Notes under the pieces: generated by a model
The model's database searches: none
What the model saw: only the letters and a program-made list of their open reading frames with translations
What the model was told of the DNA's origin: nothing
In this document: positions 2,745-43,394 of the stretch, one piece after another
Layout of the letters: every line of letters begins with the position of its first letter
Position numbering within the stretch: position 1 is the first letter of the stretch
Translations under genes and position numbers: made by a program
From: Escherichia coli
Lineage (GTDB): Bacteria > Pseudomonadota > Gammaproteobacteria > Enterobacterales > Enterobacteriaceae
DNA: 64,000 nucleotides
Assembly: GCF_965641715.1 (NCBI RefSeq)
Contig: NZ_OZ282453.1
Direction: 5' to 3' (one strand)

Positions 2745-3221
2745 AATAGTAGTACTCCTAACTGAGATATATTTGAATGAATACCTATAGGAAACCTCAA
2801 TCGGTCAAAATTAGCCCAATAGATAAAAAGATAACCACACACGAAGTGATATGGCTATCAGTCAATTACATTAAATATCATACAAAAATAAAATATCACT
2901 GATGTGATAACATCTATTTTCATTGATTTGATTCAATATAACAATAGATTGCAGTGGATTAACTTCCAGTTGCTTAAAAAATAAAGAAAAAAGTGCAGAA
3001 ACAGGAGAATTTAAGTGATGTGTAAATTTATGAATGATTTTGTTTATTTATTTTGAAGAACATAAACCATTGTATTTTGTGTGGATATGGTTAACTTAAT
3101 GTTTATTATGAAAATTAATAATCACACTTACAATAACATCAATTAATAAATGGTTAATCATTTTTGATATATCGTAAGAATAATGTAGTTTTTAACACCA
3201 TCCCTGGTATCTCAACTATCT

Positions 3222-3824
3222 CTATAAAACAGCGTGACGCTGTCGTCCTCTGGCTCTATCCCAGATGCCGTAAAAACGCCCTGCATTGCTGGCGGTATAC
3301 CAGACAGTATGACGAATATTGCGATGCCCAAGATAATCCTGGATAAGTCGCGTATCTATTCCCATATTCGCCAAAGCAAAACCACACGAATGGCGTAACA
3401 TGTGCGGATGAATCTCCAGTGACAACCCGGCATTACCACCGGAAGTCGAGATAATATGGTAAAACTGTTGCCGAGAAAGCGGATTTCCCTTACGTGATAA
3501 AAATACCCACTCGCTCTCAGCATGCGGGTACGAAGTACGGATACTCAACCAGTTTTTTAAAGCCTGAACTTCTTTGTTCAATAGCGGATGCGTTGTTGAA
3601 AAGCCTTTTTTTAATCGATGGATATATATACACTTTGCCTTAAGATCAATATCCGAAATCCTCAATCGACAAATTTCACTCGCCCGGAAACCATGAATAA
3701 AACAAAGCAAAGTCAGACAATAATTACGTGCTGCATGAGGCCCGGTATTTGCTGCTTTAAGGAGTGATTCGATTTCACTATGGGTCAGGAAGTTCCTTTT
3801 TTTGTTATCAGCCTTATTCTTCAT
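3222..3824 (-). CDS. fimB: Tyrosine recombinase FimB (bidirectional fim switch recombinase; 200 aa from the ATG at 3824)
   Basis: MKNKADNKKRNFLTHSEIESLLKAANTGPHAARNYCLTLLCFIHGFRASEICRL...; paralogue of FimE upstream of it. Confidence 0.95.
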   Translation of the reverse strand: MKNKADNKKRNFLTHSEIESLLKAANTGPHAARNYCLTLLCFIHGFRASEICRLRISDIDLKAKCIYIHRLKKGFSTTHPLLNKEVQALKNWLSIRTSYPHAESEWVFLSRKGNPLSRQQFYHIISTSGGNAGLSLEIHPHMLRHSCGFALANMGIDTRLIQDYLGHRNIRHTVWYTASNAGRFYGIWDRARGRQRHAVL

Positions 3825-4834
3825 CGTTTTTCCCTTATAATTACAGACGCGCACTAGCTGTGCTGGGTTAGCAATAATCCAACATTTTTATCCTGATTAT
3901 GTTTATAAAAGCGAACGTTTGCTTAATAACTAACGTAAGTGGACCAGTTCTTCTGAGTGAACTTAAATGGAGTAGCAACAGTTAATTATAATAACGTTGC
4001 CATACAAACGCTATGCTCTTGCATGCTATGTACCTTTATATATTTATCAATCGGATACGAATCTAATAATAACCCTCATCATTAATGCAACTAATCTTAT
4101 CTATATATCATGTGATATGTTCTGTAACAAGTAAAATCAACATAAAAAATTCAGCAAAATTTAATATTCGTTCAACTAGCCGTCTCACATATGACATTAT
4201 TAGTCAACTCCATTTGCCACAAAATGGCTATTTCATGGAACGCAGTAATTTCTTAGTGGCTATTATCATGCTAATTCTTAGGTCCCTAGCGATTATTCCT
4301 GGCTGGTTCGTCAGTTTAGGCCATGAGATTGTTACATTCCTTTTTATCATGGAGATATGGGGGAAAGCAGGAAACGATTTTTTCATCTACATTCGTTGGT
4401 AAATATAGCTTTGGTCACTACGACTTAAACCTTCCTCAATCACAGGTATTCGCCGGGCGATACGGCAAACAAACTAAGTGAAACATCATCCTGAAAACAC
4501 CAACATCAACAAGCCTCTCCAGATCGACTTCAGAAGTGACCAGTTACAAGCCACAAACCAGGAAACATATTTCATGATGAGAATTATGCTCAGCCTGATG
4601 GCGGGTAAACACTGATTTTCACCAAGCTCACTGAGTTAGCTTGCAAAGCTTTCCTTGTTTAGACTCTAAATAAATTATTTATAAAACAAATAGTTAAACG
4701 AAGATCTTTAGTTTTTGAAGACCACCGCAAGTGTTCGTCTGGCTTCACATGGCATCTTCCTCTTAGAAAAAGATCGACATATTTTGTGACACGAATTGCA
4801 AATCTGGTTTTGTTGTATGGATTGCGTGATTTTT

Positions 4835-7185: not shown

Positions 7186-8166
7186 ATGAACGCAATAATA
7201 TCGCCTGATTATTACTATGTTCTTACTGTTGCTGGTCAGTCTAATGCCATGGCGTATGGCGAAGGACTGCCATTACCGGACAGGGAAGATGCGCCTCATC
7301 CCAGAATTAAACAATTAGCGAGATTTGCGCATACGCATCCCGGAGGCCCGTCATGTCACTTTAACGACATTATTCCACTGACTCACTGCCCACACGATGT
7401 TCAGGATATGCAGGGTTATCACCATCCTCTGGCAACGAATCATCAAACACAGTACGGCACCGTTGGCCAGGCACTGCATATTGCACGGAAATTACTGCCC
7501 TTCATTCCTGATAATGCAGGGGTTCTCATCGTTCCATGTTGCCGTGGCGGATCGGCTTTTACCGCGGGCAGCGAGGGGACATATTCAGAACGGCACGGAG
7601 CCAGCCATGATGCTTGTCGTTGGGGAACGGATACTCCGCTGTACCAGGATTTAGTCAGCAGAACGCGAGCCGCACTGGCAAAAAATCCGCAGAACAAATT
7701 CCTCGGCGTATGCTGGATGCAAGGCGAATTTGACTTAATGACCAGTGACTACGCGTCACACCCTCAACACTTTAATCATATGGTTGAAGCCTTTCGTAGG
7801 GATCTAAAACAATACCATTCTCAGCTGAATAATATTACTGACGCGCCGTGGTTTTGCGGCGATACCACCTGGTACTGGAAAGAAAATTTCCCTCATGCGT
7901 ATGAAGCTATTTATGGCAATTATCAAAATAATGTTTTAGCTAATATTATTTTCGTCGACTTCCAGCAACAAGGTGCAAGAGGGCTAACGAACGCGCCTGA
8001 TGAAGATCCGGACGATTTAAGCACGGGATATTACGGTTCAGCGTACCGGTCACCGGAGAACTGGACGACGGCACTGCGAAGCAGTCATTTCAGCTCAGCA
8101 GCCCGTCGGGGGATTATTTCTGACAGGTTTGTAGAAGCAATTTTGCAGTTTTGGCGCGAAAGGTGA
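7186..8166 (+). CDS. nanS: 9-O-acetyl-N-acetylneuraminate esterase NanS
   Basis: MNAIISPDYYYVLTVAGQSNAMAYGEGLPLPD... (SGNH-type GQSN motif); third gene of nanCMS; a hairpin at 7128-7149 separates it from nanM. Confidence 0.9.
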   Translation: MNAIISPDYYYVLTVAGQSNAMAYGEGLPLPDREDAPHPRIKQLARFAHTHPGGPSCHFNDIIPLTHCPHDVQDMQGYHHPLATNHQTQYGTVGQALHIARKLLPFIPDNAGVLIVPCCRGGSAFTAGSEGTYSERHGASHDACRWGTDTPLYQDLVSRTRAALAKNPQNKFLGVCWMQGEFDLMTSDYASHPQHFNHMVEAFRRDLKQYHSQLNNITDAPWFCGDTTWYWKENFPHAYEAIYGNYQNNVLANIIFVDFQQQGARGLTNAPDEDPDDLSTGYYGSAYRSPENWTTALRSSHFSSAARRGIISDRFVEAILQFWRER

Positions 8167-8173
8167 GCGTTCA

Positions 8174-8824
8174 TTAATTTGATTTATTCGCATCCATCAG
8201 CGCTTTTAACTCCTCCGGCGTAAACGGTGGTTTGCGTCGGTGCAACATCGCATGGCAATTAGGGCACACAGGAAGTAAATCATTAACTGGATCCAGCTGG
8301 TAATCCTCTTTAATGGCTGAAAGCGGCACCAGGTGATGCATATGGATAAAACCCTCAGCGATATCGCCATAGATCTTCACCAGATCAACGCCGCATACGT
8401 TGCACTGGCATCCGTGATGTTCGACTGCTTTCTCGCGAGCTTTTTTATCGCGTTCATAGCGGTTTACCGTCACCTTTATCGCCGCACCTTCAACGTAGGT
8501 CCCCTGCGACGGCAACTCATCCGGGAACAGAACATCGGCTATGGGAGCCGCAGCGGCTTTATCCTGATGAATATGAAATCCCTGATCTATAAGTAGCTTG
8601 ACGCATTTAGATTTTATTCCGCCGGTGAAATCCGCAGGGGTAAATTGCGTCCCCGTCATCAATGTCGCTGCGATGCCAGCAATCGCCTTCGAGGGGTAAC
8701 GTCGGCCATGATATTCAATCTCATACAACCGCGCAGGCTGGAACTGATGAGTTTCTCCCGCATCCCATAAATGGATAGCTTCGATGATATACCGCCGCGG
8801 AAGATGGTCGGGAAGTTTATTCAT
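8174..8824 (-). CDS. HNH endonuclease-domain protein (216 aa) with an uncharacterised N-terminal domain
   Basis: C-terminal His-Me finger: HHGCQCNVCGVDLVKIYGDIAEGFIHMHHLVPLS...NDLLPVCPNCHAMLHRR; convergent with nanS, 8 bp apart. Confidence 0.6.
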   Translation of the reverse strand: MNKLPDHLPRRYIIEAIHLWDAGETHQFQPARLYEIEYHGRRYPSKAIAGIAATLMTGTQFTPADFTGGIKSKCVKLLIDQGFHIHQDKAAAAPIADVLFPDELPSQGTYVEGAAIKVTVNRYERDKKAREKAVEHHGCQCNVCGVDLVKIYGDIAEGFIHMHHLVPLSAIKEDYQLDPVNDLLPVCPNCHAMLHRRKPPFTPEELKALMDANKSN

Positions 8825-8903
8825 GGGGAATATCCTTATACGTTCTCAGAACAGGCAGCAAAAAAACAAATGAGATCAAGGTAATATATCTTCACTTGCA
8901 GGC

Positions 8904-9146
8904 TTGAACAGCAGAAAATTTGCGAGCATGATCGCAATTATTTCACTGCCAGGGATATCAATGGCTTCCAGTAAATCGCTACAGCAGGCAATTGCCAATA
9001 TAAAAATCTGGCACAAGGGTGAACAGCGCACGCCGCATAAGCCATTGTTATTGCTATACGTATTAGCGGGATACCTGAATGGACATCCGCACCTTTTCGA
9101 TTATTGTAGTGGAACAGTCTACGAGGATGCAGTTCGAAGTGAGTAA
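8904..9146 (+). pseudogene. Truncated 5' fragment of a gene paralogous to the HNH protein at 40750-41670
   Basis: Fragment ...LQQAIANIKIWHKGEQRTPHKPLLLLYVLAGYLNGHPHLFDYCSG aligns with N-terminal ALKQAISNITIWRKGEQRAPHKPLLLLHVLSHYRQGHGRLFNYGSE of the 306-aa protein; the ORF stops after 80 aa. Confidence 0.55.
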
Positions 9147-9202
9147 GTAAAGGTTGCTGGAAACGATCAATGCCGCCATACAATGATATTTGAGGATCAA
9201 CA

Positions 9203-9388
9203 ATGAGTAATAAAAACTACGAAAGTCACCGCAAAGCGATTGTTAGTAAAGGTATACCACCCGCTCTATTAAATAGGCTCACCAATTCGGATGTTCAGGT
9301 GATCAATACCTTCTTAACACGAGTGAGCAAACTGGAACTATCTCAACAAGAGAAAGACTGGATCATAAAAATCATCTCTATGGTTTAG
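9203..9388 (+). CDS. Small hypothetical protein (61 aa)
   Basis: ORF only; no recognisable motif. Confidence 0.25.
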   Translation: MSNKNYESHRKAIVSKGIPPALLNRLTNSDVQVINTFLTRVSKLELSQQEKDWIIKIISMV

Positions 9389-9406
9389 AGAATTTCAGCC
9401 TTGTAG

Positions 9407-10075
<669 letters not shown>

Positions 10076-10301: not shown

Positions 10302-12533
10302 TTAGTTCTCAACCATCAATCGGGAAAGTTTGGCAAAAATCGAACTCTTACTACTTTCGCCACTCCTGAGCATATCCAGGGTGAAGCTATTGAGGTAAGC
10401 ACCAGTTAACGGGTGGTTAAATACATCTACGGCCTTACCTTGGGCGTCCCATATCAGCAGATTTTCTACCAGGTTAGGCCGTGCAATAGTAGGATTTGTA
10501 GGCTGAGCATCGCTTACCAGAACAAACACTCCATTCACATGCGGTTGCAGGTAAATATGGTGATGCTTCATCTTTTGAGTTTTGGTCAACGAGTCGTATT
10601 TCGAGCGGCCCGGTGATATCAGATAGGGCAGTACGTTTTGCTCCAATTTTGCTGAGCGGGTGATGGTATAGCCGTTAAATTTATCACCTTTACGCTCCGC
10701 CAGCGCTTTTTCTTGTTCCTGATAAGCATATGAATCGACGATATTAAATTGCGCTGGGCCAATCAGGCGCGGCACGCGGGAGCTGTTATAGGTGGTAAGC
10801 AGCACATCTGCTGTGTGGTCGTAGAGATAGAAGCTTTTATCGAATAATTTCTTTAGTCGTCCCAGAGCTGGATGATCAACAGATAGATACTCGAATTCAC
10901 CTTCAGCGATCCCGGTATCAACCACCCTAAGTTGGCCGCGCTCTATTTTTAGTTCAACATATCCAAGCAGGGAGAGATAGCTTTTTGTTTTGCGTACTGA
11001 ATAGGCGGTATAGTGCCCATCCGCCAATTCTGGCAGTGGTATGTTATGTTGATTGAGTAAGCTCTCTTTGAACCATAGTTCAGTTTTTGTTCGGCGTACC
11101 TTACTTTTCAATAAGGTAACTGCTGACTTGAGACGACTGTGTGGTTTCGTCAGTTCGATTTCGTATTGTGCAGGGTTGCTTACCAATTGTTCATTAATAA
11201 AATCAATCGCATCCAGCAACTTACGATCAATATTCATTCCTTGTAAAACCACAGGCACCGGTTGCTGATTTAGCCACCCTTGCAAACGATCTAGCTTAAG
11301 CTGGGTATAGGTATCCCAGTTGAGTTCAGGCTGTTTTCGGGCGTCGTCAAAGGCTGCATAGAAATCATTGTACTCAACAGATTCATTCTCTTGCTGCCGG
11401 ATGCTGTTGCTTCGTTCTTCCTCTACCGCATTGAGTACCAGAATAGATGTATTGGCAGGCAGCTCAGCAAATCCGGTTTGTCGGGAATGCTTAAGCGATG
11501 CAAGAGGCCAGAGTTGATACCCAGGGAACTGGTTGGCTAATGCATCAAAGAAATAAGCTTCTTGCGTGACGCTGAATTCGACGCCGTTATTAACCACCAA
11601 CAGCGTATTAGCCAGCTGTTGATCGAGGTCGGTAGCAAACTGATTGACCTCGTGTGTAGCCTGAAATGGGATAGGTTGATGGGGGATCTCTAGTTCACTG
11701 AGGCGCTCGCTGGCAGCATTCATGACCACGTTATAGGTATAGACCTGGCATTCGCCATAGCCGCTGCGCTCACGAAAAAAATCCAGTTTGCTATCACGGG
11801 CATCAAGTTTGCGCCGAGCTTTAAGCCGACGATTATCGATGTTAAACCACACGCTGGTATCATCCAGGGATAGGTGCATCTCATCCGCCGGTTCGACCAG
11901 GAATTTTCGTTTGTGCAAGGTAAAAGCGAGTTCATTATATTCTGAGGCATAAATGTCGAGCTCAAAGGCTTCCATCACCCCGATGCCTTTTTTTTGTGTG
12001 ACGGGCTGACTCAGACGAGCGTTAAGGTAAAGCGTTGAGTTGAAGTAAGTCGGCGATACCGAAAAGCGCTCACTGGCTTTTTCCAGCATTACCATTTTCA
12101 AATGCAGGCTAAATAATCCCTGAATCAGGCGAGATAGGTCATGATTTTCAGCGGTGAGTTGCTGACAAAGCGTTTCAATACGTTCTGCCAACGTCCTATG
12201 AGCCTGACTGTTCGGGTTAGTTGCAGGCGCCAGGAAAAAAAAGACGTGATGGTAATTTGGTAAGCAATGCAGTTCATATTTTACCTCCTGCCCGGCCTCC
12301 AGCCCAAGCTTCTGCCGCACGCAAGATTTTACCTCCTGATGAATTCGCGCATAGTAATCAGCGGATTTTTCTTTTCGCTCTTTAGTAAAGCGCTGAACCA
12401 TAAAGTCTATCGTATAGATATTAGATACAGGGGCCAATAGACGCTGGATGGTCGTCAGCTGATCTTCTTCAAGCTTGATCAAATTGGTTCGGGCAATCGG
12501 AGCATCCGTCAGTTCATTCAAATTAGGGATCAT
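10302..12533 (-). CDS. Uncharacterised 743-aa protein, downstream partner of the helicase-like gene
   Basis: Long ORF whose ATG overlaps the stop of the upstream gene (ATGA at 12530-12533); no nucleotide-binding or methyltransferase motif recognised by eye. Confidence 0.7.
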   Translation of the reverse strand: MIPNLNELTDAPIARTNLIKLEEDQLTTIQRLLAPVSNIYTIDFMVQRFTKERKEKSADYYARIHQEVKSCVRQKLGLEAGQEVKYELHCLPNYHHVFFFLAPATNPNSQAHRTLAERIETLCQQLTAENHDLSRLIQGLFSLHLKMVMLEKASERFSVSPTYFNSTLYLNARLSQPVTQKKGIGVMEAFELDIYASEYNELAFTLHKRKFLVEPADEMHLSLDDTSVWFNIDNRRLKARRKLDARDSKLDFFRERSGYGECQVYTYNVVMNAASERLSELEIPHQPIPFQATHEVNQFATDLDQQLANTLLVVNNGVEFSVTQEAYFFDALANQFPGYQLWPLASLKHSRQTGFAELPANTSILVLNAVEEERSNSIRQQENESVEYNDFYAAFDDARKQPELNWDTYTQLKLDRLQGWLNQQPVPVVLQGMNIDRKLLDAIDFINEQLVSNPAQYEIELTKPHSRLKSAVTLLKSKVRRTKTELWFKESLLNQHNIPLPELADGHYTAYSVRKTKSYLSLLGYVELKIERGQLRVVDTGIAEGEFEYLSVDHPALGRLKKLFDKSFYLYDHTADVLLTTYNSSRVPRLIGPAQFNIVDSYAYQEQEKALAERKGDKFNGYTITRSAKLEQNVLPYLISPGRSKYDSLTKTQKMKHHHIYLQPHVNGVFVLVSDAQPTNPTIARPNLVENLLIWDAQGKAVDVFNHPLTGAYLNSFTLDMLRSGESSKSSIFAKLSRLMVEN

Positions 12534-15500
12534 GAGACTTTTCCTTTAGTCGGCAACTTTTCTACACCCAGCAGGGTTAGTAACATTGGGTTAATGTTCA
12601 ATGTCATGCTCAGTTTCGAATTTTCCAGAGCTCGTCCGCTCTCTCGATTTTTGGGCTGATAGTACTGATAGTCGGTTTGCAACAGGTTAAGGTAGTGGAT
12701 CGTGTGATCCACGTTATCTTGCCACATCAGATTATTGGGGTTCTGGCTGTAGGCGACGTTCAGATAGACAAATCGAATGCGTTCGTAACGGCCTGACAGC
12801 ACAGCCTGAAGCTGTTTCTGTCCCTCTGTATCCGCCTTTTGGCTGGTGATATTACGGATCTGGCGAATCTTGTTGTTGCTTTTCTCAAGCGTTTCTTCTG
12901 CCCGCGTTAAATCATCCAACTGCGTCGCCCAGCGTTTAACGTCGATGCAGAGCAGGTCGTTACCCACTTCAATAAAGCGGTCAAAAAACTCATATACTAG
13001 CGGTTCAAGGCGTTCAAACACCTGTTGATCAGAAAGTGGGGTAACGCCATAGCTTTTTAGCACTTTATCGAAGAGATATTCACCGACATTGCCTTTGAGC
13101 AACGGAACTAGCCTGGGGTTGGGTACCCATTTTTTGAATGCCGTTTCCTGGATGTTGTCACATTCACGAATCAACTCGCCGACCAGGTTGCCGGGGGTAA
13201 AATCGACATCGTTTCTATACTGCGGAAAGAGGGTGAGCTCAGGCCGGTACTCTCTTGCGCCGCCAGCGAAATCCGACAGGGCGGAATAATCTCTGTGGAC
13301 AAGTCCATCCGGGCCGCGTTTGTGGCAAAGTAAAATAGTTTGATTGCCCTGATGGCGGTCGATAAACAGGGCGTGGTGGATTGATTGCATTTGCCGATTG
13401 GCGGCATACAAGGAATTAGCCTGAAGTTTTTCCAGCCAACGCATGGGATTGGTAAAGGAGTCAGAATCGCGGAATAAATTACACAATTCGAGATATTCAA
13501 GGTTGCCGGCGCGTACCTGATTTATCCAGTCGGTTTTCAGGACTCGCTTATGAACAGCATCGATGCGGCGACCATTTTCTACGATAGCCTGTTCAAACGC
13601 ATACCGCTGTTCTGCATCTCTAAATGACTGGTTCTGACTCAGCTTTTCGCACTCCTCCATTAGGCGGTGGTTAAGCAAGGACATGCTTTCTGATACTACC
13701 TCGTTACCGCTATCTTCACTGAGAGCGGCGAACTGGAATGCAACATTACGGAACACATCGCGGGGTAAAAAGATTTCTGTTTTCAATAGAGTGTCGCGAC
13801 GCTCGACTCGCCCTACGGCCTGCACGACGACTTTGAATAAGCTCATATCATGTTCGGCCATTAACAGGCGATAGTTTTCGCCGTGGGCGAAATTAACGTT
13901 GAAATCGGCCAGCTTGTGGACGGTAATATCGTCATCAGCGTAGTGTTTAAGCACGGTAACGTAGTTAGGTAATGTATTAAGATTGCCGCTGTTGTCCTTT
14001 ACTTCGCTGTAAAACGAGGAGTTGATGAGCACTAAGCGCTCAAAATCGACATCCAGACGTGGTGCATTGATATCATTAATATCGCCGTCATGGTATTTCA
14101 CAAAGTAGTTGAGGCCAGTGCCTGCACTTTTGTAGCTGCTCATAAATACCAGTACGGTATTGCTGTTCTTGAGATAGGTTTCTTGCCTAATATCTTCGAC
14201 ATTAGCCAGTGGTGAATCGAAAAAGACCAAATGGACTGTGTGACGCCCTTTGAATGGGGTAAAGGTCAGGATCTGGTCATGTTTCTTATCGTTATCCGTT
14301 TTATCATCGCACCGGGAGTGCATACCGTACTGCTGACGCCAGGCTGATTGATGAGTGCGCCAGGCGCTGATAAAGGCCCGCTTAAATGTCCCTGAAAGGG
14401 ACAAAATCAGGCTGTTTTTACCCTCGTAGGCGGCAAGCAATAACGCTTCAAGCTCCCGCTGGTACTGACGCCGTTTATAGGTATTTTTCAGGTCGTACTC
14501 CAGCGGTTTCTTCAGCGCGTCGAAAAAGTTGTCATACGTCCTGCGATAGATCTCACAATTTTGGTAGATATCGGTCAATTTTAACTGCTTATCATCGAAC
14601 ACCCTGAAGTCGACGTTGCGGATACTGGCTCTCAACGCGCGTAGTGCTCTAAGCGTATCGATATCTGTTTTTTTACGTTCAATGACTCGATAGCCAAGGT
14701 CACGGCTATAGCGCTCCAGGAAGTGACGATTGAAGTTACCGTTTTTGGTGTGGCTAAAACCACTGGTGGCGCTAAATCCAATCACTTTATTGTGCGTGCC
14801 CGTTAATAAACGTAGCAGCATGGCTTCAGGCAACTCTTGTACCAGATCCATCTCAAACGCCAGAATAATTGTACGCTCGGCTCCACTGTTCACGTAATTG
14901 AGTTCAACTATCGGCGTCATCGTGAATACGGTTTTGGGTTGCAGATAAGTGTAGAAATGATCAATCAACAAGTTTTTATCGGTGGTGCGATCGAAGATAT
15001 GTCGCACCACTCCAGCTACATTATTGGCTGCGTCAACAAATTGGCCCAAAGGTGTATTCTGGCTGCTGGAGTTATCCTGGCCACCATTTTTTACCCAGCG
15101 CTTAAAGTGTCGGTTGGTGATATCAGAACAGGCGGCGAGGATGACGGAGACCAATTGGAACAGATCGTGCAGTGTGGGATTGGTGTCGCTGGCATCATTT
15201 TCGACTTCGTAATATAGCTCGGTGCGCGTTATGTCGCCTTCGCTGTTGCGCATACGAATGCGTTTCAGCCCCTCTTCATTAACGTACATTTTGGGGTTAA
15301 AACTGAACACATTCCGGGTAATGGAAATGATGCGTTCGGCGGCGTCGCCGTTAACTTCGAATGCTCCTAACTGGTCGCGAAACATCTCCAGGATCGAGCC
15401 CAGCGTCGTACCGGGTGATAATTCGCACTTTTTCGCCAGTAGGTCTCGAAGGATGGTGATGAATTTGACCATCTCTTGCTCAAAGGTCGTTTGCGCTTCT

Positions 15501-17239
15501 TTGGGCTTTTTCCGGCGCTCCAGGCTGAGTACCGCATTGTGAATACGTCCCGCGACAGAGATAACATGCGCCAGATTATTTTCCTGTGTGATTAGCTTTA
15601 CATGGCATGTTTCTTCAAGACGGGTGTAGGCTTCATGTAGTTCATCAATGATTACCGTAAAGCGAATATTTTTCTGGCGAAAAGGGCAGTCTGGATTACG
15701 TCTGAAGTGTTCATCACGAAGATAAGCAACCTGCCCGGAATGGCCAGCTGCCGCAACGGTGCTGATCTGTGGATCTTTGGGAGCCAGCTTGCCACCAATC
15801 AGCAAGTCGAAACCTACGGACTCAAAATGCACGCCTTCACCTCGCTGACGAGGCGCCAGTCGGTAAGTTGATGTGTCGAACTTATTTGTAGTCATTAATA
15901 GCACCGACGGGCGGTACTGGCAAACTTCGAAAGGCAATACCTGTTTGATAAGCTCGAAGTAGACTTCGTGTACGCTTAGTTCAGACTTGCTTGGTTTTCG
16001 TGCTGTCTCCGCGTGTTGCATTCGCTCTTGGCGCGCCTGGAGCCCGCGACGAATGTACTCTTTAATGGAAGCTTTTTCACTATCTGGTCCAAATAGTAAT
16101 TTACAGGCTGACTCAATCGTATTGCGGATACTATGACGACAGTTTTTTAGCTGCTCTTCAAGAATTTCTCTTTCGTAGTTGTTATCCTGAGAACCGTATG
16201 TTGTCAGCTTTTTTAACTGCTCTTCACAGCGATCAATTTGTGAGACATGGTAATTGAGCGAACGCATTGCGCTGCCAATATATTTGCTACCTTTCGCCCC
16301 TTCGTACCACTGAATATAGCGGTCGCGATTTTTCAGGCCCGTGGCCCAGTCCATAAAGTCGAGATCGGCAATATCCTTACGAGAGAGAACGCAAATGAAT
16401 TCGCCGCCAGAAGCCAGAATTTTATCTTTCTGGCTGCTATCCAGGTCGATTTGTGATTTTTGCGGCGACATGAACAGCAGGTTGGTAAAGCCACCTTCGG
16501 GAAACAGATCATCTGACTTTTGTTTTTTGGCGAAACACTCCAGATATTCGACATACCCTTGAATTACGCCATAACTTTTGCCAAACCCCGTGCCATCGGA
16601 ACTGAAGATGACCTCCGCGCCATCACGTTCATGCACGTGGTAAAGTTGAGAAACTTGGGCGCGGCAAGCGTTAATATCTTCAACCAGCGTTATGTCAGGA
16701 ATTTGCCTGGAGATGAGATCTTGCAGATTATTATTGATAGTTATCTCTCCCACACGCTCACACTCACGGTAACTATTGATGGTTATTTGGCTGCTTTCGA
16801 GCAGAATCTTTTCCACTTGCATGGGAGCAAGATGCAAGGCTGTTGCAATTTCATTGATAGTATCTGATAGAGGTTCGTGTGGATTGCTAATCGTGAAGTG
16901 GTTTAGTACTGCTGCAACGGTATCTGGATGCAATGCTTTTCTGAGAGTGGGGAAGGTGAGGCTGTAATCGTATAGCGCCAAATCATTGTTTATCAGACAG
17001 CGAAACAGCTGTTTAGTGGGATCGCCTCCAGGACGGCTGGCAAATCCCAGGATTTTTGCCTGTTCGAGTCGATACAACAATGCTGCAGCATCGCGATCAG
17101 GTGAGTCAAATGCATCGTGAAGCTGCTGGCTAAATGGCATTGTGGCATTCAGCCGGTTATGGCTGACCAACGCGGAAAAGTGCTGACGTACCAAGGTAAG
17201 CAGCTTACAATCTTCCTTTATAGTCCAGTTTTTTCTCAT
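12530..17239 (-). CDS. Large SF2-helicase-like NTPase (about 1570 aa from the ATG at 17239; the ORF track begins at a GTG at 17275)
   Basis: Walker A DGTGFGKSYG, DExH-like Walker B VIIDELHEAY, motif III-like GFSATSGF, motif V-like SSYKSAGTGLNYF, motif VI-like QAVGRVERR, then about 400 aa of C-terminal sequence without recognisable motifs; GGGGAAG ribosome-binding site before the ATG at 17239. Confidence 0.7.
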   Translation of the reverse strand: MRKNWTIKEDCKLLTLVRQHFSALVSHNRLNATMPFSQQLHDAFDSPDRDAAALLYRLEQAKILGFASRPGGDPTKQLFRCLINNDLALYDYSLTFPTLRKALHPDTVAAVLNHFTISNPHEPLSDTINEIATALHLAPMQVEKILLESSQITINSYRECERVGEITINNNLQDLISRQIPDITLVEDINACRAQVSQLYHVHERDGAEVIFSSDGTGFGKSYGVIQGYVEYLECFAKKQKSDDLFPEGGFTNLLFMSPQKSQIDLDSSQKDKILASGGEFICVLSRKDIADLDFMDWATGLKNRDRYIQWYEGAKGSKYIGSAMRSLNYHVSQIDRCEEQLKKLTTYGSQDNNYEREILEEQLKNCRHSIRNTIESACKLLFGPDSEKASIKEYIRRGLQARQERMQHAETARKPSKSELSVHEVYFELIKQVLPFEVCQYRPSVLLMTTNKFDTSTYRLAPRQRGEGVHFESVGFDLLIGGKLAPKDPQISTVAAAGHSGQVAYLRDEHFRRNPDCPFRQKNIRFTVIIDELHEAYTRLEETCHVKLITQENNLAHVISVAGRIHNAVLSLERRKKPKEAQTTFEQEMVKFITILRDLLAKKCELSPGTTLGSILEMFRDQLGAFEVNGDAAERIISITRNVFSFNPKMYVNEEGLKRIRMRNSEGDITRTELYYEVENDASDTNPTLHDLFQLVSVILAACSDITNRHFKRWVKNGGQDNSSSQNTPLGQFVDAANNVAGVVRHIFDRTTDKNLLIDHFYTYLQPKTVFTMTPIVELNYVNSGAERTIILAFEMDLVQELPEAMLLRLLTGTHNKVIGFSATSGFSHTKNGNFNRHFLERYSRDLGYRVIERKKTDIDTLRALRALRASIRNVDFRVFDDKQLKLTDIYQNCEIYRRTYDNFFDALKKPLEYDLKNTYKRRQYQRELEALLLAAYEGKNSLILSLSGTFKRAFISAWRTHQSAWRQQYGMHSRCDDKTDNDKKHDQILTFTPFKGRHTVHLVFFDSPLANVEDIRQETYLKNSNTVLVFMSSYKSAGTGLNYFVKYHDGDINDINAPRLDVDFERLVLINSSFYSEVKDNSGNLNTLPNYVTVLKHYADDDITVHKLADFNVNFAHGENYRLLMAEHDMSLFKVVVQAVGRVERRDTLLKTEIFLPRDVFRNVAFQFAALSEDSGNEVVSESMSLLNHRLMEECEKLSQNQSFRDAEQRYAFEQAIVENGRRIDAVHKRVLKTDWINQVRAGNLEYLELCNLFRDSDSFTNPMRWLEKLQANSLYAANRQMQSIHHALFIDRHQGNQTILLCHKRGPDGLVHRDYSALSDFAGGAREYRPELTLFPQYRNDVDFTPGNLVGELIRECDNIQETAFKKWVPNPRLVPLLKGNVGEYLFDKVLKSYGVTPLSDQQVFERLEPLVYEFFDRFIEVGNDLLCIDVKRWATQLDDLTRAEETLEKSNNKIRQIRNITSQKADTEGQKQLQAVLSGRYERIRFVYLNVAYSQNPNNLMWQDNVDHTIHYLNLLQTDYQYYQPKNRESGRALENSKLSMTLNINPMLLTLLGVEKLPTKGKVS

Positions 17240-18364
17240 TCTTCTTCCCCTTAATATAAATGCACCTGCAACCACTCAGCCAAACGCTCAACGTCAAAAC
17301 CCGTAATCCATACTCCCACGCCAAAAACGTCTTCGATAAATATTCATCATATTTTCGAGGCACTTTTCAGAGATGCTCTTGGCAAGACGGGACTCAGGGG
17401 GTAAACCTTCCTGTAGTAAATTGCTTAGCGTCTGCTTAACTTTCCCGAGCGTATTTTTTCAACTACGGCAGCAAATGAGACGGTCTTAAAACCGTGCAGG
17501 ATAGGCCATATCTACAACGTGTTTACTACTTGAGCACACATTGTGATATGGCAGTCACCTTTCCGACAAATGGTGAACCGTCCCTGACGAACAACAACAT
17601 TAACGCATATCTCTTCATCGCCTGATCAAAGTAGCTGCCAACTATTATTCGCCTCAACAATGAGTTTTTTTACTAACGATTTCTACTACCTTCCCAAAGC
17701 GACCACAACAATCAAAAATATTGTTTACACATCAGTCTCATATCACCGGAGTAAGTTGACTATTGATAAACCATTTCAAGATATTAATAGCTGATCATAC
17801 TTCCCCAAAGTGCTTATTTATAGCGAAGGCAAATAGCATAAACTGAAGGGCGAATTGTTAAATCATACCGTGAATGAGCTGAAGAACAAGCATAAAAATT
17901 ATATCATTTACATGACTTATGTGTTTTAGTTAAATGATAAATAGGCAGTATAAAATCCAATTCAACAGCCGAGTTCAAGCGATTAATTTTTTGATGAGCT
18001 TATCAAGCACGAGCAGCGATACCAGCAAATCCACTTGGTTGCTTGAAGAATATGACTCCTTCAACACATAGCAGATTATCTCCGCCGTTGGTAGAGAACC
18101 GTTCACCGTTGTTAGTCAACAGTTATAAATTTATATTAATGATTAGAAGAATCTATCTCGGGGTAGATCATCAACATTACTTATTCTAAACCACGTTACA
18201 CATGATCTCCGGGGCAGCGAAGTCATCAAAAAAGAGTATTATAAAACTCCGCCCTTAAGGAGAAAGGTTTCCTGGCGGTTGTAATGCCGTTGACGATACA
18301 GCGCACAACACGGATATAAACAACCATTTGATTGATTAATATCTGAAGGGCTGTTTATATTTAA

Positions 18365-18635
18365 TCAAGCTAACGATTCATTAATCTTTACATAGAGATG
18401 AGGTAATGTGGCCTCATTGCGATTCACATCCAGATAATCCGCCCCCCACTGCAGCATCTGCCGCTCTACCGCATCTCTCGGCCATAGCCCCGACTCAATC
18501 AACGACCTACACGCCATTGCCCTGAAACCATGCCCACAAAAAGCAGCTCTCAATTTCCATTCATGCTTTATACCTTTTCTAATAGGCTTTTGCTTCAGGC
18601 TTAGCCGAACGAACCTTCACATCACTCAAAGCCAT
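18365..18635 (-). pseudogene. Internally deleted P4-type integrase remnant
   Basis: N-terminal piece MALSDVKVRSAKPEAKAY-stop (18579-18635) and C-terminal piece ...GHGFRAMACRSLIESGLWPRDAVERQMLQWGADYLDVNR (18365-18553), both matching the intact integrase at 41841-43109. Confidence 0.7.
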
Positions 18636-18766
18636 GATGAATACCCTTTCAAGGGTTTTGTGTGGGTACAAACATTATCCAATCGGGATATACCCGCAGC
18701 TGTAGCTGTACCCGCATCAGTAAGTTGATGTAGATTCGAAAAATAGCGGAAACCCTGTGTGACACT

Positions 18767-18821
18767 GATTTCAGGCACAAAAAAAGACGTCTGTTGACGT
18801 CTATTGATGGTGCGAAGGCCG
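18767..18821. repeat. Degenerate copy of the leuX terminator and tRNA 3' end (attachment-site remnant)
   Basis: GATTTCAGGCACAAAAAAAGACGTCTGTTGACGTCTAT...TGGTGCGAAGGCCG compared with 43261-43325 GATTTCAGGCATAAAAAAAGACCTCAGTTGAGGTCTAT...TGGTGCCGAAGGCCGG; the hairpin keeps pairing through compensatory changes. Confidence 0.65.
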
Positions 18822-18937
18822 CACCGCGATTCCAGACTCAACAATATGAAATCAATGGATTTTTAAAAATGCGAAGTTACTTTGTATACTCACATGTATA
18901 CTCAGTACCATTTCTTAAGAAATCAATTCATTCAATA

Positions 18938-19744
18938 CTACTCATCATCGTCTTCCACTGGTTCCAGCACATCAAGCGCAACTCGCACCATAGCGATAGA
19001 ACCAATACGAATGAAAGCATCTTCTCCATCTTCGTCGGTTATCATAAAACGATCCGTGGTTTCAGGCTCGCAATCCAGCGCGTCAAAAAAAGCATTCAAC
19101 TGGCCGATATCATCCGTCTCTTCGTTTTGCGGCGCATCTGGCTCAACACTCAGTGGAATCACTGGTCCGCCGTTTACCAGCGTGATATGGACATTAAAAT
19201 AATCGTCTTCGTAGGCATCATCCTCTTCGTCAACGATTGGCCGCAGACCATCAGAAAGGAACTGATGAAATACCACTTCACGCATATTTAACGCATAACG
19301 ATACTCGGAAGAATCAAAAACGAAGAAGCGTTCTATGTTTGGGGCGTTTTTTTCCTGAAAATAATAATAAAACCTCCGCTTATCCGCTGCTGAAATGGGC
19401 AACAGCAAATAGTCCCTCTGCCCCTGTAGCCAAAGTTTTACGGTCCAGAGACCGCTATCCATTTCAATGCCGCTTGTGGCTATAGCCTCAAGATCTTCAT
19501 CAGTTTTACGACGCTTTTTGCGGAAGTCGTTTATCAACCGATCGCTTTCCGGGAACACTACGTTTAGAGGCTTATCCAGAGCATTACATATCGCCTGTGC
19601 GAGACCCAGCTTTGCAGCAACCTTCCCGGTTTCGATACGCTGAATTTGTTGCTGGCTGGTGCCGACCATAAACGCCAGCTCGCGCTGGGTGATAGATAGC
19701 TGGGTACGGAGCTGTTTGATGTTGTTCTGTAACATGGCATCCAT
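18938..19744 (-). CDS. XRE-family helix-turn-helix protein with a long acidic C-terminal region
   Basis: N-terminal HTH (LSITQRELAFMVGTSQQQIQRIETGK); C-terminus ends ...LDVLEPVEDDDE. Confidence 0.55.
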   Translation of the reverse strand: MDAMLQNNIKQLRTQLSITQRELAFMVGTSQQQIQRIETGKVAAKLGLAQAICNALDKPLNVVFPESDRLINDFRKKRRKTDEDLEAIATSGIEMDSGLWTVKLWLQGQRDYLLLPISAADKRRFYYYFQEKNAPNIERFFVFDSSEYRYALNMREVVFHQFLSDGLRPIVDEEDDAYEDDYFNVHITLVNGGPVIPLSVEPDAPQNEETDDIGQLNAFFDALDCEPETTDRFMITDEDGEDAFIRIGSIAMVRVALDVLEPVEDDDE

Positions 19745-19849
19745 CCTTCAGAAGGAATAGAAAGTGCCATTAAAACACAAAATTGAGTATAAACACATAA
19801 TCGTGTTTACACTCACTAATCAACACCCTTGAACGAAAAGAAAATCTCT

Positions 19850-20125
19850 TCATCGTTCTTCTCTGGTATGCCAGAGATCAACTATATAAATGTCATTGTC
19901 ACGAAGTTCGTAGTGAACCTCATAGTCATCAAATAACACTTTTCGGACTTCCCGAGGTTCATACCGAGTCTGCTGTACACCAATTGCCGGATGTGCTGTA
20001 AGACCAGCACAACCAGTAATCAGGCGATCCAAAACGTCATCGGCGTGCTGGCGGCTATACTGAAGGGCGAAACGATAGATACGCTCAAGGTCATCCTGAG
20101 CTTTAAGCGTCCAGTAAATTTCCAT
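19850..20125 (-). CDS. ParE/RelE-superfamily toxin (91 aa)
   Basis: Small protein directly downstream of a ribbon-helix-helix-type antitoxin gene with a 3-bp gap; ParE-like size and sequence character. Confidence 0.6.
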   Translation of the reverse strand: MEIYWTLKAQDDLERIYRFALQYSRQHADDVLDRLITGCAGLTAHPAIGVQQTRYEPREVRKVLFDDYEVHYELRDNDIYIVDLWHTREER

Positions 20126-20128
20126 TTA

Positions 20129-20377
20129 TCAGGATTTCTTTAAGCGATTAGCAAAATCCACCATGTCCGAGTGGCTCATCACACGACCGGCATCCACATC
20201 ATCAAGACCGGCCTGGATGCTCTGGTGACGCCGTTCTCTTTCGGCCAGCATACTGGTCAACGCTTCCTTAATAATCCAGCTCTTAGAACGGTCCAACTCA
20301 ATTGCCAGATTCTCAACAGCAGCGGCCAATTCAATAGGTATCTGTGCGCTGATGGTTTGTTTAGTAAGCGAACCCAT
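20129..20377 (-). CDS. ParD/CopG-type antitoxin (from the ATG at 20377; the ORF track starts at 20401)
   Basis: MGSLTKQTISAQIPIELAAAVENLAIELDRSKSWIIKEALTSML...; GAGG ribosome-binding site before 20377. Confidence 0.6.
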   Translation of the reverse strand: MGSLTKQTISAQIPIELAAAVENLAIELDRSKSWIIKEALTSMLAERERRHQSIQAGLDDVDAGRVMSHSDMVDFANRLKKS

Positions 20378-20453
20378 AGGGATTACCTCGTTTAATAACA
20401 TTTAATAACTCCTATTAATATTAGCATAGAGGTGCCTATAAAAACATCACATC

Positions 20454-21311
20454 TCATTTTGCAGGCAACATCCCGGGAAAGTGCTTCGCCACGATATCAT
20501 TCATCTTCTCCACCAGATCCAAACGTTTGAAAGTGATATGCCCACTGCCCTTCTGAAAGTAGCGAATAGTGAACAACTCATCTTCGAAAATCTGCTGATG
20601 CGGATTATCGCGCACAAAATCCATAAACCGGATGGAGACATCATGCCGGTTATCGGGAATGGCCTTCCCATCCAGCAGATAGAACATCCGTTCCAGATCG
20701 GCAAGCTGATCGCGCCGCCAGCCCCAGTTCAGGCTGTAGCCCCATCTGTCATGCTTCACCAGATTGTTAACGATAATCTTCTTACCGAAATAACAGGGAT
20801 TATTGGTTTTGTAGTCCCAGCTCAATCCCTTAAATACATTGATAATCCCACGTTCGAAAACATCCTGCTTATTGTGGTGAAGTTGTTCAAAGGTACTCAG
20901 GATGTTGGCTTCGCTAATCGCCGGGGGATCGCCCTCCTCCAGATTCTTTGCCCACTGACTGCGAGCTTCGGCATCCATCAGAGTCAACATACCGGACTTC
21001 AGCATGAGATCGCGCCAGATGCTGCGGTCGATATTGCGGGTGATCACCGGCATCGCTTTGTCGGTTGGCTGCATCAGCCAGCAGTCAAAGGCATATCCAT
21101 TCCGCATTGCCCAGGTTCCAGCCATATCACCGCCAATACTGGATGTCAGGCTGGAGATATCATCCAGTTTTTGGATTAACGTCGCTATCTGGTTCAGTGC
21201 ACTATCACGTCCTGTGACGATGCGCTCAATACTGGTCGAGCAAATTAGTTCGTTATGATCGGTTAAGACTTCAGCTTCTGTTTGCATAATCTTTTGTCCG
21301 TATAAAAGCAA
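20454..21311 (-). CDS. Hypothetical protein in the YeeW-like position downstream of the CbtA-like toxin
   Basis: ORF and position in the cryptic-prophage backbone only. Confidence 0.45.
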   Translation of the reverse strand: MLLYGQKIMQTEAEVLTDHNELICSTSIERIVTGRDSALNQIATLIQKLDDISSLTSSIGGDMAGTWAMRNGYAFDCWLMQPTDKAMPVITRNIDRSIWRDLMLKSGMLTLMDAEARSQWAKNLEEGDPPAISEANILSTFEQLHHNKQDVFERGIINVFKGLSWDYKTNNPCYFGKKIIVNNLVKHDRWGYSLNWGWRRDQLADLERMFYLLDGKAIPDNRHDVSIRFMDFVRDNPHQQIFEDELFTIRYFQKGSGHITFKRLDLVEKMNDIVAKHFPGMLPAK

Positions 21312-43109: not shown

Positions 43110-43270
43110 AATGGTCTTCCTTCCATTGGTATCTCGTGAGTATACAAGCAATATCGAATCGGCAAATATACTCATTAGTATACTCACAAGCCTGTTGATG
43201 TGGGTTGGTTCAGGTTGACTTCAGTTGAGGAGAAAAGCTGGAAAAGCCTTGCGTGGCGCGGATTTCAGGC

Positions 43271-43298
43271 ATAAAAAAAGACCTCAGTTGAGGTCTAT
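43271..43298 (-). terminator. Rho-independent terminator downstream of leuX
   Basis: Hairpin AGACCTCAGTTGAGGTCT followed by a T-run on the tRNA strand. Confidence 0.6.
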
Positions 43299-43309
43299 TT
43301 ACATACTTT

Positions 43310-43394
43310 TGGTGCCGAAGGCCGGACTCGAACCGGCACGTATTTCTACGGTTGATTTTGAATCAACTGCGTCTACCGATTTCGCCACTTCGGC
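43310..43394 (-). tRNA. leuX: tRNA-Leu (leuX), intact with CCA end
   Basis: Reverse complement GCCGAAGTGGCGAAATCGGTAGACGCAGTTGATTCAAAATCAACCGTAGAAATACGTGCCGGTTCGAGTCCGGCCTTCGGCACCA; 85 nt. Confidence 0.95.

Follow-up and report, generated by a model that had tools for sequence, protein, structure and literature searches.

What accounts for more than a kilobase of apparently empty DNA directly upstream of a large, intact operon in an Escherichia coli genomic island? Within the 64,000-nucleotide E. coli sequence analyzed here (the window), positions 17276-18364 form the longest run devoid of any open reading frame (ORF) of at least 60 amino acids on either strand; the run measures 1089 nt and the next in length 593 nt. 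The run is AT-rich as well, with a GC content of 39.2% overall and a minimum of 32.7% at 17700-17999, compared with 0.45-0.50 in the flanking genes. An initial reading made from the letters alone (the sequence-only reading) had pointed to both properties, and both hold. The longest ORF within the stretch has 59 amino acids (17260-17439, plus strand). Since 36% of 2000 shuffled sequences of the same composition likewise lack a 60-amino-acid ORF, the stretch behaves simply as non-coding DNA, and its unusual feature is the presence of 1.1 kb of such sequence amid a gene-dense E. coli island.

Both limits of the run are artefacts of the ORF definition. The true start of the large gene on its left, apsA, is the ATG at 17239 and not the GTG at 17275; this ATG is preceded by a ribosome-binding site (RBS), is kept in all homologues, and is also where RefSeq begins the gene in strain A30, which is 99.8% identical to the window over 17100-18900. 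On the right, the 62-amino-acid ORF at 18365-18553 is just part of a larger integrase remnant. A 24-nt inverted repeat was also noted in this region, with its arms at 17238-17261 and 18129-18152.

Our analysis indicates that the stretch is very probably a compound deletion scar, located at the end nearest the integrase in an old leuX genomic island. We take it for an ordinary product of decay, formed from known systems and lying beside a known system, and not for a new element. The features on which this reading is based are collected in Table 1.

Table 1. Features of the apsAB locus and of the scar upstream of it, in window coordinates.
Feature	Position	Strand	Basis or remark
apsB, Argonaute-like partner, 743 aa, intact	10302-12533	-	92% to ST38 ApsB
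apsA, SF2 helicase + PD-(D/E)xK nuclease, 1569 aa, intact	12530-17239	-	92% to ST38 ApsA
apsA RBS GGGGAAGAAGA	17240-17250	-	Directly after the former sngC stop
sngC stop TAA	17251-17253	-	Stop + RBS (17240-17253): 13/13 aligned positions match the consensus of intact relatives
Proximal tail of sngC (final ~65 codons), frameshifted	17254-17445	-	79-89% identity to intact sngC
Distal remnant of sngC (roughly codons 516-665 of 732)	17446-17750	-	66-72% identity to sngC where intact (five relatives)
Junction of the ~5.2 kb deletion (approximate)	17751-17771		Alignment blocks jump from 15744 to 20934 in the R32_14_1F locus (L007)
sngA start codon, retained	17772-17774	-	Alignment; reads ATG GTT TAT CAA TAG, a stop after three codons
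abiEii-sngA intergenic spacer remnant	17775-17950	-	Aligns with the 183-nt spacer of intact relatives
64-nt conserved core upstream of sngA	17835-17898	-	80% to intact consensus vs 57-62% in flanks
abiEii remnant encoding the C terminus (final ~85-90 codons), strongly decayed	17951-18226	-	tblastn, blastn, colinear blocks
~160-nt residue	18227-18385		Between the abiEii and integrase remnants
Tyrosine integrase, internally deleted, leuX-type	18386-18635	-	tblastn; RefSeq pseudogene annotation
Fossil leuX junction: terminator copy + 18 nt of leuX 3' end	18756-18825	-	Aligns with 43250-43327

The intact operon beside the stretch

The operon downstream of the stretch, which the sequence-only reading had called helicase-like, is ApsAB, a published antiplasmid system. 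Its two genes overlap by 4 nt. Searches of Pfam, PADLOC v2, NCBIfam and the PDB (by sequence and by profile) returned no match for either the 1569-aa or the 743-aa protein, and these null results had at one point led to the view that the helicase-like label was unsupported. That view was overturned by the conservation of motifs, by fold matches and by the ApsAB paper. Across 24 homologues, SF2 motifs I, II, III and VI of ApsA are invariant (GFGKS218-222, DELH532-535, SAT823-825 and QAVGRVER1140-1147 being the invariant segments), as is its C-terminal PD-(D/E)xK motif (D1420..D1433-V-K1435), and the motif residues carry the same numbers as in the published protein (PMC11096173). An AlphaFold2 (AF2) model of the ApsA helicase core (pLDDT 78.4) matched DdmD at 7.5e-18, followed by DinG and XPD, so that the earlier label is borne out at the level of both motif and fold. 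In ApsB, K413 (the MID-like 5'-end binding lysine) and the C-terminal N743 are invariant, as in the prototype (PMC11096173), and Foldseek with an AF2 model (pLDDT 71.8) found DdmE at 1e-10 and then long Argonautes (pAgos). In its architecture ApsAB is related to DdmDE of Vibrio cholerae.

The protein family is small, with about 55 clusters, all in the Gammaproteobacteria. The ST38 prototype, which has the same motif residues as the window proteins and matches them at 92% identity in both ApsA and ApsB, resides natively on an island at tRNA-Leu and destabilizes pOXA-48 as well as p15A, ColE1 and pMB1 plasmids; a homologue from ST219 (92/92%) was active against plasmids too (Zongo et al., 2024, Nat Commun; PMC11096173). 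The same paper records that some apsAB islands also bear SngABC and AbiEi/AbiEii (its Fig. 8b legend) and makes no mention of remnants or of a native promoter (PMC11096173). Beyond about 200 nt upstream of the operon, the DNA of the ST38 island differs from that of the window and consists of an integrase fragment and an Rpn pseudogene. The apsAB pair also occurs in Vibrio toranzoniae and Oceanisphaera without Shango, which argues that it is an autonomous module; the Vibrio pair adjoins a divergent BrxR/WYL regulator. A practical warning follows, as apsAB goes unrecognized by Pfam, PADLOC v2 and NCBIfam.

Remnants of Shango, AbiE and a leuX-type integrase

Two pieces of the stretch found matches in distant DNA searches, its first ~250 nt at the 3' end of annotated DEAD/DEAH helicase genes and a piece at ~17784-17922 in non-coding DNA upstream of a TerB-N gene. 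In relatives these lie within an intact block, abiEi-abiEii-sngA-sngB-sngC-apsA-apsB, which is present in E. coli R32_14_1F (L007), Salmonella (L013/L014) and Brenneria (L015), and without AbiE in Xenorhabdus bovienii (L016). Along one strand of the R32_14_1F locus the order reads tRNA-Phe, integrase, Old-family nuclease, AbiEi, AbiEii, TerB protein, ATPase, DEAD/DEAH helicase, 1565-aa protein and 743-aa protein. PADLOC identified the intact genes as SngA (1e-96), SngB (7e-187) and SngC (2.5e-277) with AbiEi and AbiEii as the upstream pair, and Pfam assigned TerB_N/TerB/TerB_C, BrxC_BrxD and DEAD/Helicase_C domains to the three sng products. They make up the Shango anti-phage system, whose defining components are a TerB-like protein, an ATPase and a DEAD/DEAH helicase (Millman et al., 2022, preprint, 10.1101/2022.05.11.491447; Johnson et al., 10.1101/2022.11.11.516204).

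Colinearity of 17254-18226 with the intact loci of R32_14_1F, Salmonella, Brenneria and X. bovienii was established by blastn, tblastn, and pairwise and multiple alignments, and about 85-90% of the stretch aligns with the block in the same order and orientation. Because intact genes occupy the same position in relatives, the stretch is pseudogene debris and not an ancestral regulatory spacer. The eroded gene remnants that the sequence-only reading had suspected can now be named as sngC, abiEii and the integrase. That reading would have been contradicted by an intact gene of related islands that is simply frameshifted in this strain. This applies in part: five intact genes (abiEi, abiEii, sngA, sngB and sngC) do stand there in relatives, but here they are for the most part deleted rather than simply frameshifted.

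The segment 17254-17950 descends from the 3' end of sngC together with the sngA start codon and upstream spacer. The sngC portion (17254-17750) matched SngC amino acids 544-732 by tblastn, with the proximal tail alone matching amino acids 664-698 at 69% identity, and it is interrupted by frameshifts of 1 bp and by deletions of 7 nt and 138 nt. The longer deletion is internal to the distal remnant, which carries several small indels in addition. The frameshifted tail ends 11 nt short of apsA; the sngC stop and the start of apsA are 10-12 nt apart in intact islands. Upstream of the sngC remnant, the alignment jumps by ~5.2 kb, a jump that recurs in the alignments to Salmonella, Brenneria and Xenorhabdus. 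The missing segment corresponds to 15745-20933 of the R32_14_1F locus and takes in sngA from about codon 2-4, the whole of sngB, and sngC codons 1 to ~515. Consistent with this, no tblastn match to SngA/TerB_N in the stretch fell below E 4.9, the sngA start codon and its upstream spacer (17772-17950) being all that is left, and SngB, the BrxC/BrxD-like ATPase whose gene falls wholly within the deletion, gave none better than E 8. Of SngC only amino acids ~516-732 are represented, and the helicase core (DEAD + Helicase_C, amino acids 26-363) is gone. With no intact gene here, sngA and sngB lost, and only a frameshifted sngC tail of ~215 codons left, Shango cannot function in this strain.

The AbiE toxin-antitoxin or abortive infection system, which pairs the antitoxin and regulator AbiEi with the nucleotidyltransferase toxin AbiEii, has fared similarly. 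The abiEii remnant was recognized by tblastn (AbiEii amino acids 306-348, 44-46% identity, E 1e-5 to 1e-6) and by blastn (235 nt, 68% to X. bovienii, E 9e-15); its overall DNA identity is only 57-58%. It keeps the position and orientation upstream of sngA that abiEii has in Salmonella, Brenneria and E. coli R32; unlike in those islands, abiEi and three quarters of abiEii are missing, and AbiEi/DUF6088 gave no significant tblastn match (the best spanning 11 amino acids, E 0.08). The residue at 18227-18385 had no match in the fetched loci, in the rest of the window, or in E. coli genomes outside the same locus.

Beyond this residue lies what is left of the integrase, whose amino acids 333-415 and 1-18 were found by tblastn at 18559-18386 and 18635-18582, respectively. 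In other E. coli, a leuX-adjacent integrase matches the segment 18579-18740 at 90.7% identity with its 5' end and upstream spacer. Further upstream, a copy of the leuX terminator (18756-18805, with its stem-loop at 18802-18785) is followed by 18 nt of the leuX 3' end (18808-18825). This arrangement aligned with the flank of the intact leuX with a score of 73, against a shuffle maximum of 30, and 16 of the 18 nt in the tRNA part are identical. The fossil leuX junction marks a former island boundary. The intact leuX (tRNA-Leu CAA; 43310-43394, minus strand) was the only tRNA gene detected by a scan of the window, and a full-length P4-type integrase next to a tRNA 3' end is absent from the fossil site, where only amino acids 1-18 and 333-415 and the 18-nt leuX fragment persist. 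As in other tRNA-linked islands with a P4-type integrase at leuX, we thus find a deleted integrase and a fossil leuX end, here 24.5 kb from the intact leuX. Such a layout is the usual signature of a second island having entered the same tRNA gene while the older island decays, and as a case of tRNA-linked island decay the present one shows nothing unusual.

Deletion, decay and descent of the scar

On the favoured reading, the ancestral island read, on the minus strand, leuX - integrase - ... - abiEi - abiEii - sngA - sngB - sngC - apsA - apsB. At least three deletions then produced the present arrangement, with a minimum loss of ~7.7 kb as the sum of coordinates. One removed the middle of the integrase, another abiEi and most of abiEii, and a third the ~5.2 kb from the first sngA codons to approximately sngC codon 515. 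The leftovers, being unselected, decayed by frameshifts, small indels and GC-to-AT biased substitution until they took on their AT-rich, ORF-free look, and only apsAB stayed intact under purifying selection.

The substitution pattern is informative about the composition of the stretch. At sites invariant in the intact relatives, the sngC remnant has 63 GC-to-AT changes (208 GC sites) and 26 AT-to-GC changes (218 AT sites), and the abiEii remnant with the spacer has 68 (163 GC sites) and 27 (187 AT sites), respectively. The GC content of the remnants is 0.36-0.42, compared with 0.47-0.50 in intact relatives. The AT-richness of the stretch is thus not ancestral and stems from a GC-to-AT bias in the substitutions of this lineage.

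Among 5426 complete E. coli genomes, 47 carry at least 80% of the stretch; five genomes are at 99% identity or more and 45 at ~94.5%, SA186 among the latter. Counts by junction type in complete E. coli genomes were 22 for an intact sngC-apsA junction, ~50 for the window-type scar and ~75 for the ST38-type tail. SA186, an ST131-like strain, shares all junctions of the window. Homology to ST38 stops at window position 17445 and gives way there to the unrelated integrase fragment and Rpn pseudogene. A 1-bp deletion and a cluster of derived substitutions are common to the sngC tails in the window, in SA186 and in ST38, which therefore come from one pseudogenized sngC. The shared changes rule out independent scars in the window and ST38. 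The leuX-island copies of apsAB (window, ST131-like SA186 and ST38 types) consequently trace to one ancestral sngC pseudogenization. An IS-bounded sngC tail in Xenorhabdus griffiniae is independent.

ApsA of the window and SA186 is 95.5% identical in protein, and the two genes are 88.9% identical at fourfold sites. This excess of amino acid over fourfold identity (95% vs 89%) indicates that apsAB was kept by purifying selection after the loss of Shango. The locus therefore offers a concrete case of defence island erosion, in which Shango, AbiE and the integrase were lost and ApsAB was kept.

One aspect of the divergence fits a single history less neatly. The remnants show 26-34% lineage-specific change, whereas comparable fourfold sites in apsA show 12.7%, and the excess in the distal remnants suggests that part of the scar may have another history, such as recombination. 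It may be that synonymous sites are not fully neutral, or that the scar is a recombination mosaic. In the latter case, apsAB and ~200 nt of sngC tail would have entered an island by homologous recombination, next to DNA from a much more divergent or much older Shango/AbiE copy, with the joint at ~17445-17540. The identity to intact relatives does fall in steps, from 79-89% over 17254-17445 to 66-72% and then to 57-62% further upstream, the homology to ST38 ends at the same point, and SA186 has a deletion of its own at ~17463-17590. Against this, the order and orientation of the remnants are exactly those of the intact block, so that any donor must have had the same architecture; relaxed selection with AT-biased mutation could itself raise divergence above that of synonymous sites; and no closer Shango/AbiE source was found in the E. 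coli genomes or plasmids searched, the plasmid collection yielding in distant mode a single 170-nt match, on a 1 Mb 'plasmid' record. We consider such a mosaic unlikely, if the most serious of the competing accounts, and retain the compound deletion scar as the preferred reading.

Candidate start sites for apsAB transcription

The short distance between sngC and apsA in intact islands suggests that apsAB was originally co-transcribed with sngABC. In the window, the sole terminator-like site on the minus strand is the leuX terminator copy at 18802-18785, and its position upstream makes a start for apsAB inside the scar likely. Promoter scans did not single out a site. A strict sigma-70 scan returned none on the minus strand and six on the plus strand, within shuffle expectation, and the best minus-strand score in a position weight matrix (PWM) scan was 7.8 bits, against a median best of 9.8 in shuffles.

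Two segments nevertheless merit attention. The first-ranked candidate, which we favour tentatively, is a weak promoter within the ~200-nt sngC tail (17254-17445), the only upstream DNA that the window has in common with the ST38 apsAB island, where apsAB is active. The conservation of this tail was examined as a sign of constraint and dismissed, as its 79-89% identity equals the identity of apsA fourfold sites (80-82%). The second candidate, possible but with a lesser claim, is the retained sngA upstream core at 17835-17898, from which transcription would run through a pseudogene leader of ~600 nt. Read-through or something else makes up the remainder.

The core stands out from its surroundings. 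It is 77-82% identical to the corresponding DNA of Salmonella, Brenneria and Xenorhabdus, many of its columns are invariant in 7 sequences, and it includes TTGTTC-16-TATGAT (PWM score 7.1). The first of two TTTTATGCTT repeats lies inside it and the second mostly just downstream, at ~17829-17838. The core is a candidate promoter or operator of the former Shango system. Between the window and SA186, 1 of 56 positions in the core differs, against 3.8 expected (a manual count), which is not significant, and the core is missing from ST38. A bolder version of this proposal holds that the deletion was non-random, took away sngA-sngC beginning with the first sngA codons, and kept a Shango control core with its TTTTATGCTT repeats, which would still be selected and would have been captured to drive and regulate apsAB through the ~600-nt leader. 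We regard this as rather improbable; if true, the 64-nt core would be an undescribed Shango regulatory site.

A version of the sequence-only reading places regulation at the centre. It takes the stretch to be mainly intergenic DNA that holds the promoter and operators of the operon and whose AT-richness goes with silencing by H-NS, gene remnants being a minor component. The GC content is indeed low, at 0.33-0.41, one 64-nt block of former sngA upstream DNA is better conserved than its surroundings, and apsAB does need a promoter downstream of the terminator copy. Yet the great majority of the stretch aligns to coding and spacer DNA of genes that are intact in relatives, its AT-richness was derived on the present lineage, and no promoter-like site rises above chance. 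ST38, moreover, has nothing homologous past 17445, and its native apsAB is active (PMC11096173), which argues that the operon is not generally silent. Regulation as the principal content of the stretch is therefore doubtful, appreciably more so than a mosaic origin. That it hides a functional gene, whether for a short protein or for an RNA that is small or structured, is very improbable: several ORFs of 30-59 amino acids are present and the 64-nt core could in principle belong to an RNA, but the ORFs cross frameshifted pseudogene sequence, Rfam at permissive thresholds over 15000-21000 returned nothing relevant (the top match, E 0.51, falls outside the region), the putative 661-nt leader has a fold that is not distinctive and no better than that of shuffles (z -1.43), and the stretch is missing in ST38 and interrupted by IS3 in near-identical strains.

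With the stretch read as a compound deletion scar, the search for the native apsAB promoter narrows to the two short segments described above. This narrowing is useful because ApsAB has an influence on the persistence or integration of resistance plasmids, for example pOXA-48.

Identity and neighbourhood of the two large genes

The two large 'hypothetical' genes adjoining the Shango and AbiE remnants are apsA and apsB of the published ApsAB antiplasmid system (PMC11096173). Searches of Pfam, PADLOC v2, NCBIfam and PDB sequences returned no match to either protein, and the genes were recognisable only through their invariant motifs, a fold search (DdmD, DdmE/Argonaute) and the ApsAB paper. In Vibrio toranzoniae (L008 8984-9907), a divergent gene for a BrxR/WYL-family regulator precedes apsAB at a distance of only 93 nt from apsA, and it may be a dedicated ApsAB regulator in the Vibrio lineage.

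In Xenorhabdus griffiniae (L010 9481-9986), the tail of the Shango gene sngC (aa 562-732) lies directly upstream of apsAB and is adjoined by an IS (rve transposase, 8720-9745). This tail is without the frameshift common to the E. coli scars, and the loss of Shango in X. griffiniae is an independent event.

Divergence and continuing decay

Upstream of ~17445 there is a step down in identity to the intact relatives. Beyond this point, the distal remnants (17446-18260) carry 26-34% lineage-specific divergence at sites invariant in those relatives, which is 2-2.7 times the 12.7% found at comparable fourfold sites of apsA (12530-17239). The excess may reflect a recombination mosaic, or else the synonymous sites may be non-neutral. 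Within these remnants, a block of ~64 nt upstream of sngA is almost unchanged among E. coli, Salmonella, Brenneria and Xenorhabdus. The conserved region of which it is part has two TTTTATGCTT repeats, ~50 nt apart; the block is a candidate Shango promoter or operator, apparently undescribed.

Three near-identical E. coli strains share an IS3 insertion in the sngC remnant, and apsA of one of them, A29, additionally carries a frameshift by annotation, which indicates that decay of the locus is still under way. In the ST38-type island of WP5-S18-ESBL-07 (L004 2452-6970), a fragment annotated rbbA splits apsA, so that this apsAB copy too is inactivated.

Probable layering of islands at leuX

The partial second copy of leuX lies 24.5 kb from the intact gene, and the ~24 kb between them holds an HTH regulator, RelE/ParE, CbtA/YeeU, RadC and others. 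This arrangement implies that the intervening DNA is a younger island, whose insertion into leuX displaced the older one that carries ApsAB. Downstream of apsB, three features annotated in the near-identical strain A30 are additional remains of defence-related genes, at the edge of the older island that lies farthest from the scar. An inverted repeat may be a coincidence of AT-rich sequence, or it may mark a past rearrangement.

Coordinates of features in and around the ApsAB island (window positions unless a locus is named)
Feature	Position	Remarks
apsA and apsB	10302-17239	Minus strand; 92%/92% identity to ST38 ApsAB
Partial leuX: 3' end (18 nt, 16/18) and downstream terminator	18756-18825	Comparison with 43250-43327
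IS3 in sngC remnant	17554/17555; L019 (A29) 7874-9038	A29, 1218KP, AREA_C483
~64-nt block upstream of sngA	17835-17898; L007 (E. coli R32_14_1F) ~20998-21062; L013 (Salmonella) 4021-4085; L015 (Brenneria)/L016 (Xenorhabdus bovienii) 4022-4086	
24-nt inverted repeat, 83% complementary	17238-17261 / 18129-18152	Pairs apsA RBS/start region with abiEii-remnant site
HNH endonuclease, truncated phosphorothioated-DNA-binding restriction endonuclease, integrase-core pseudogene	L001 (A30) 2987-4617 = window ~8086-9716	RefSeq annotation
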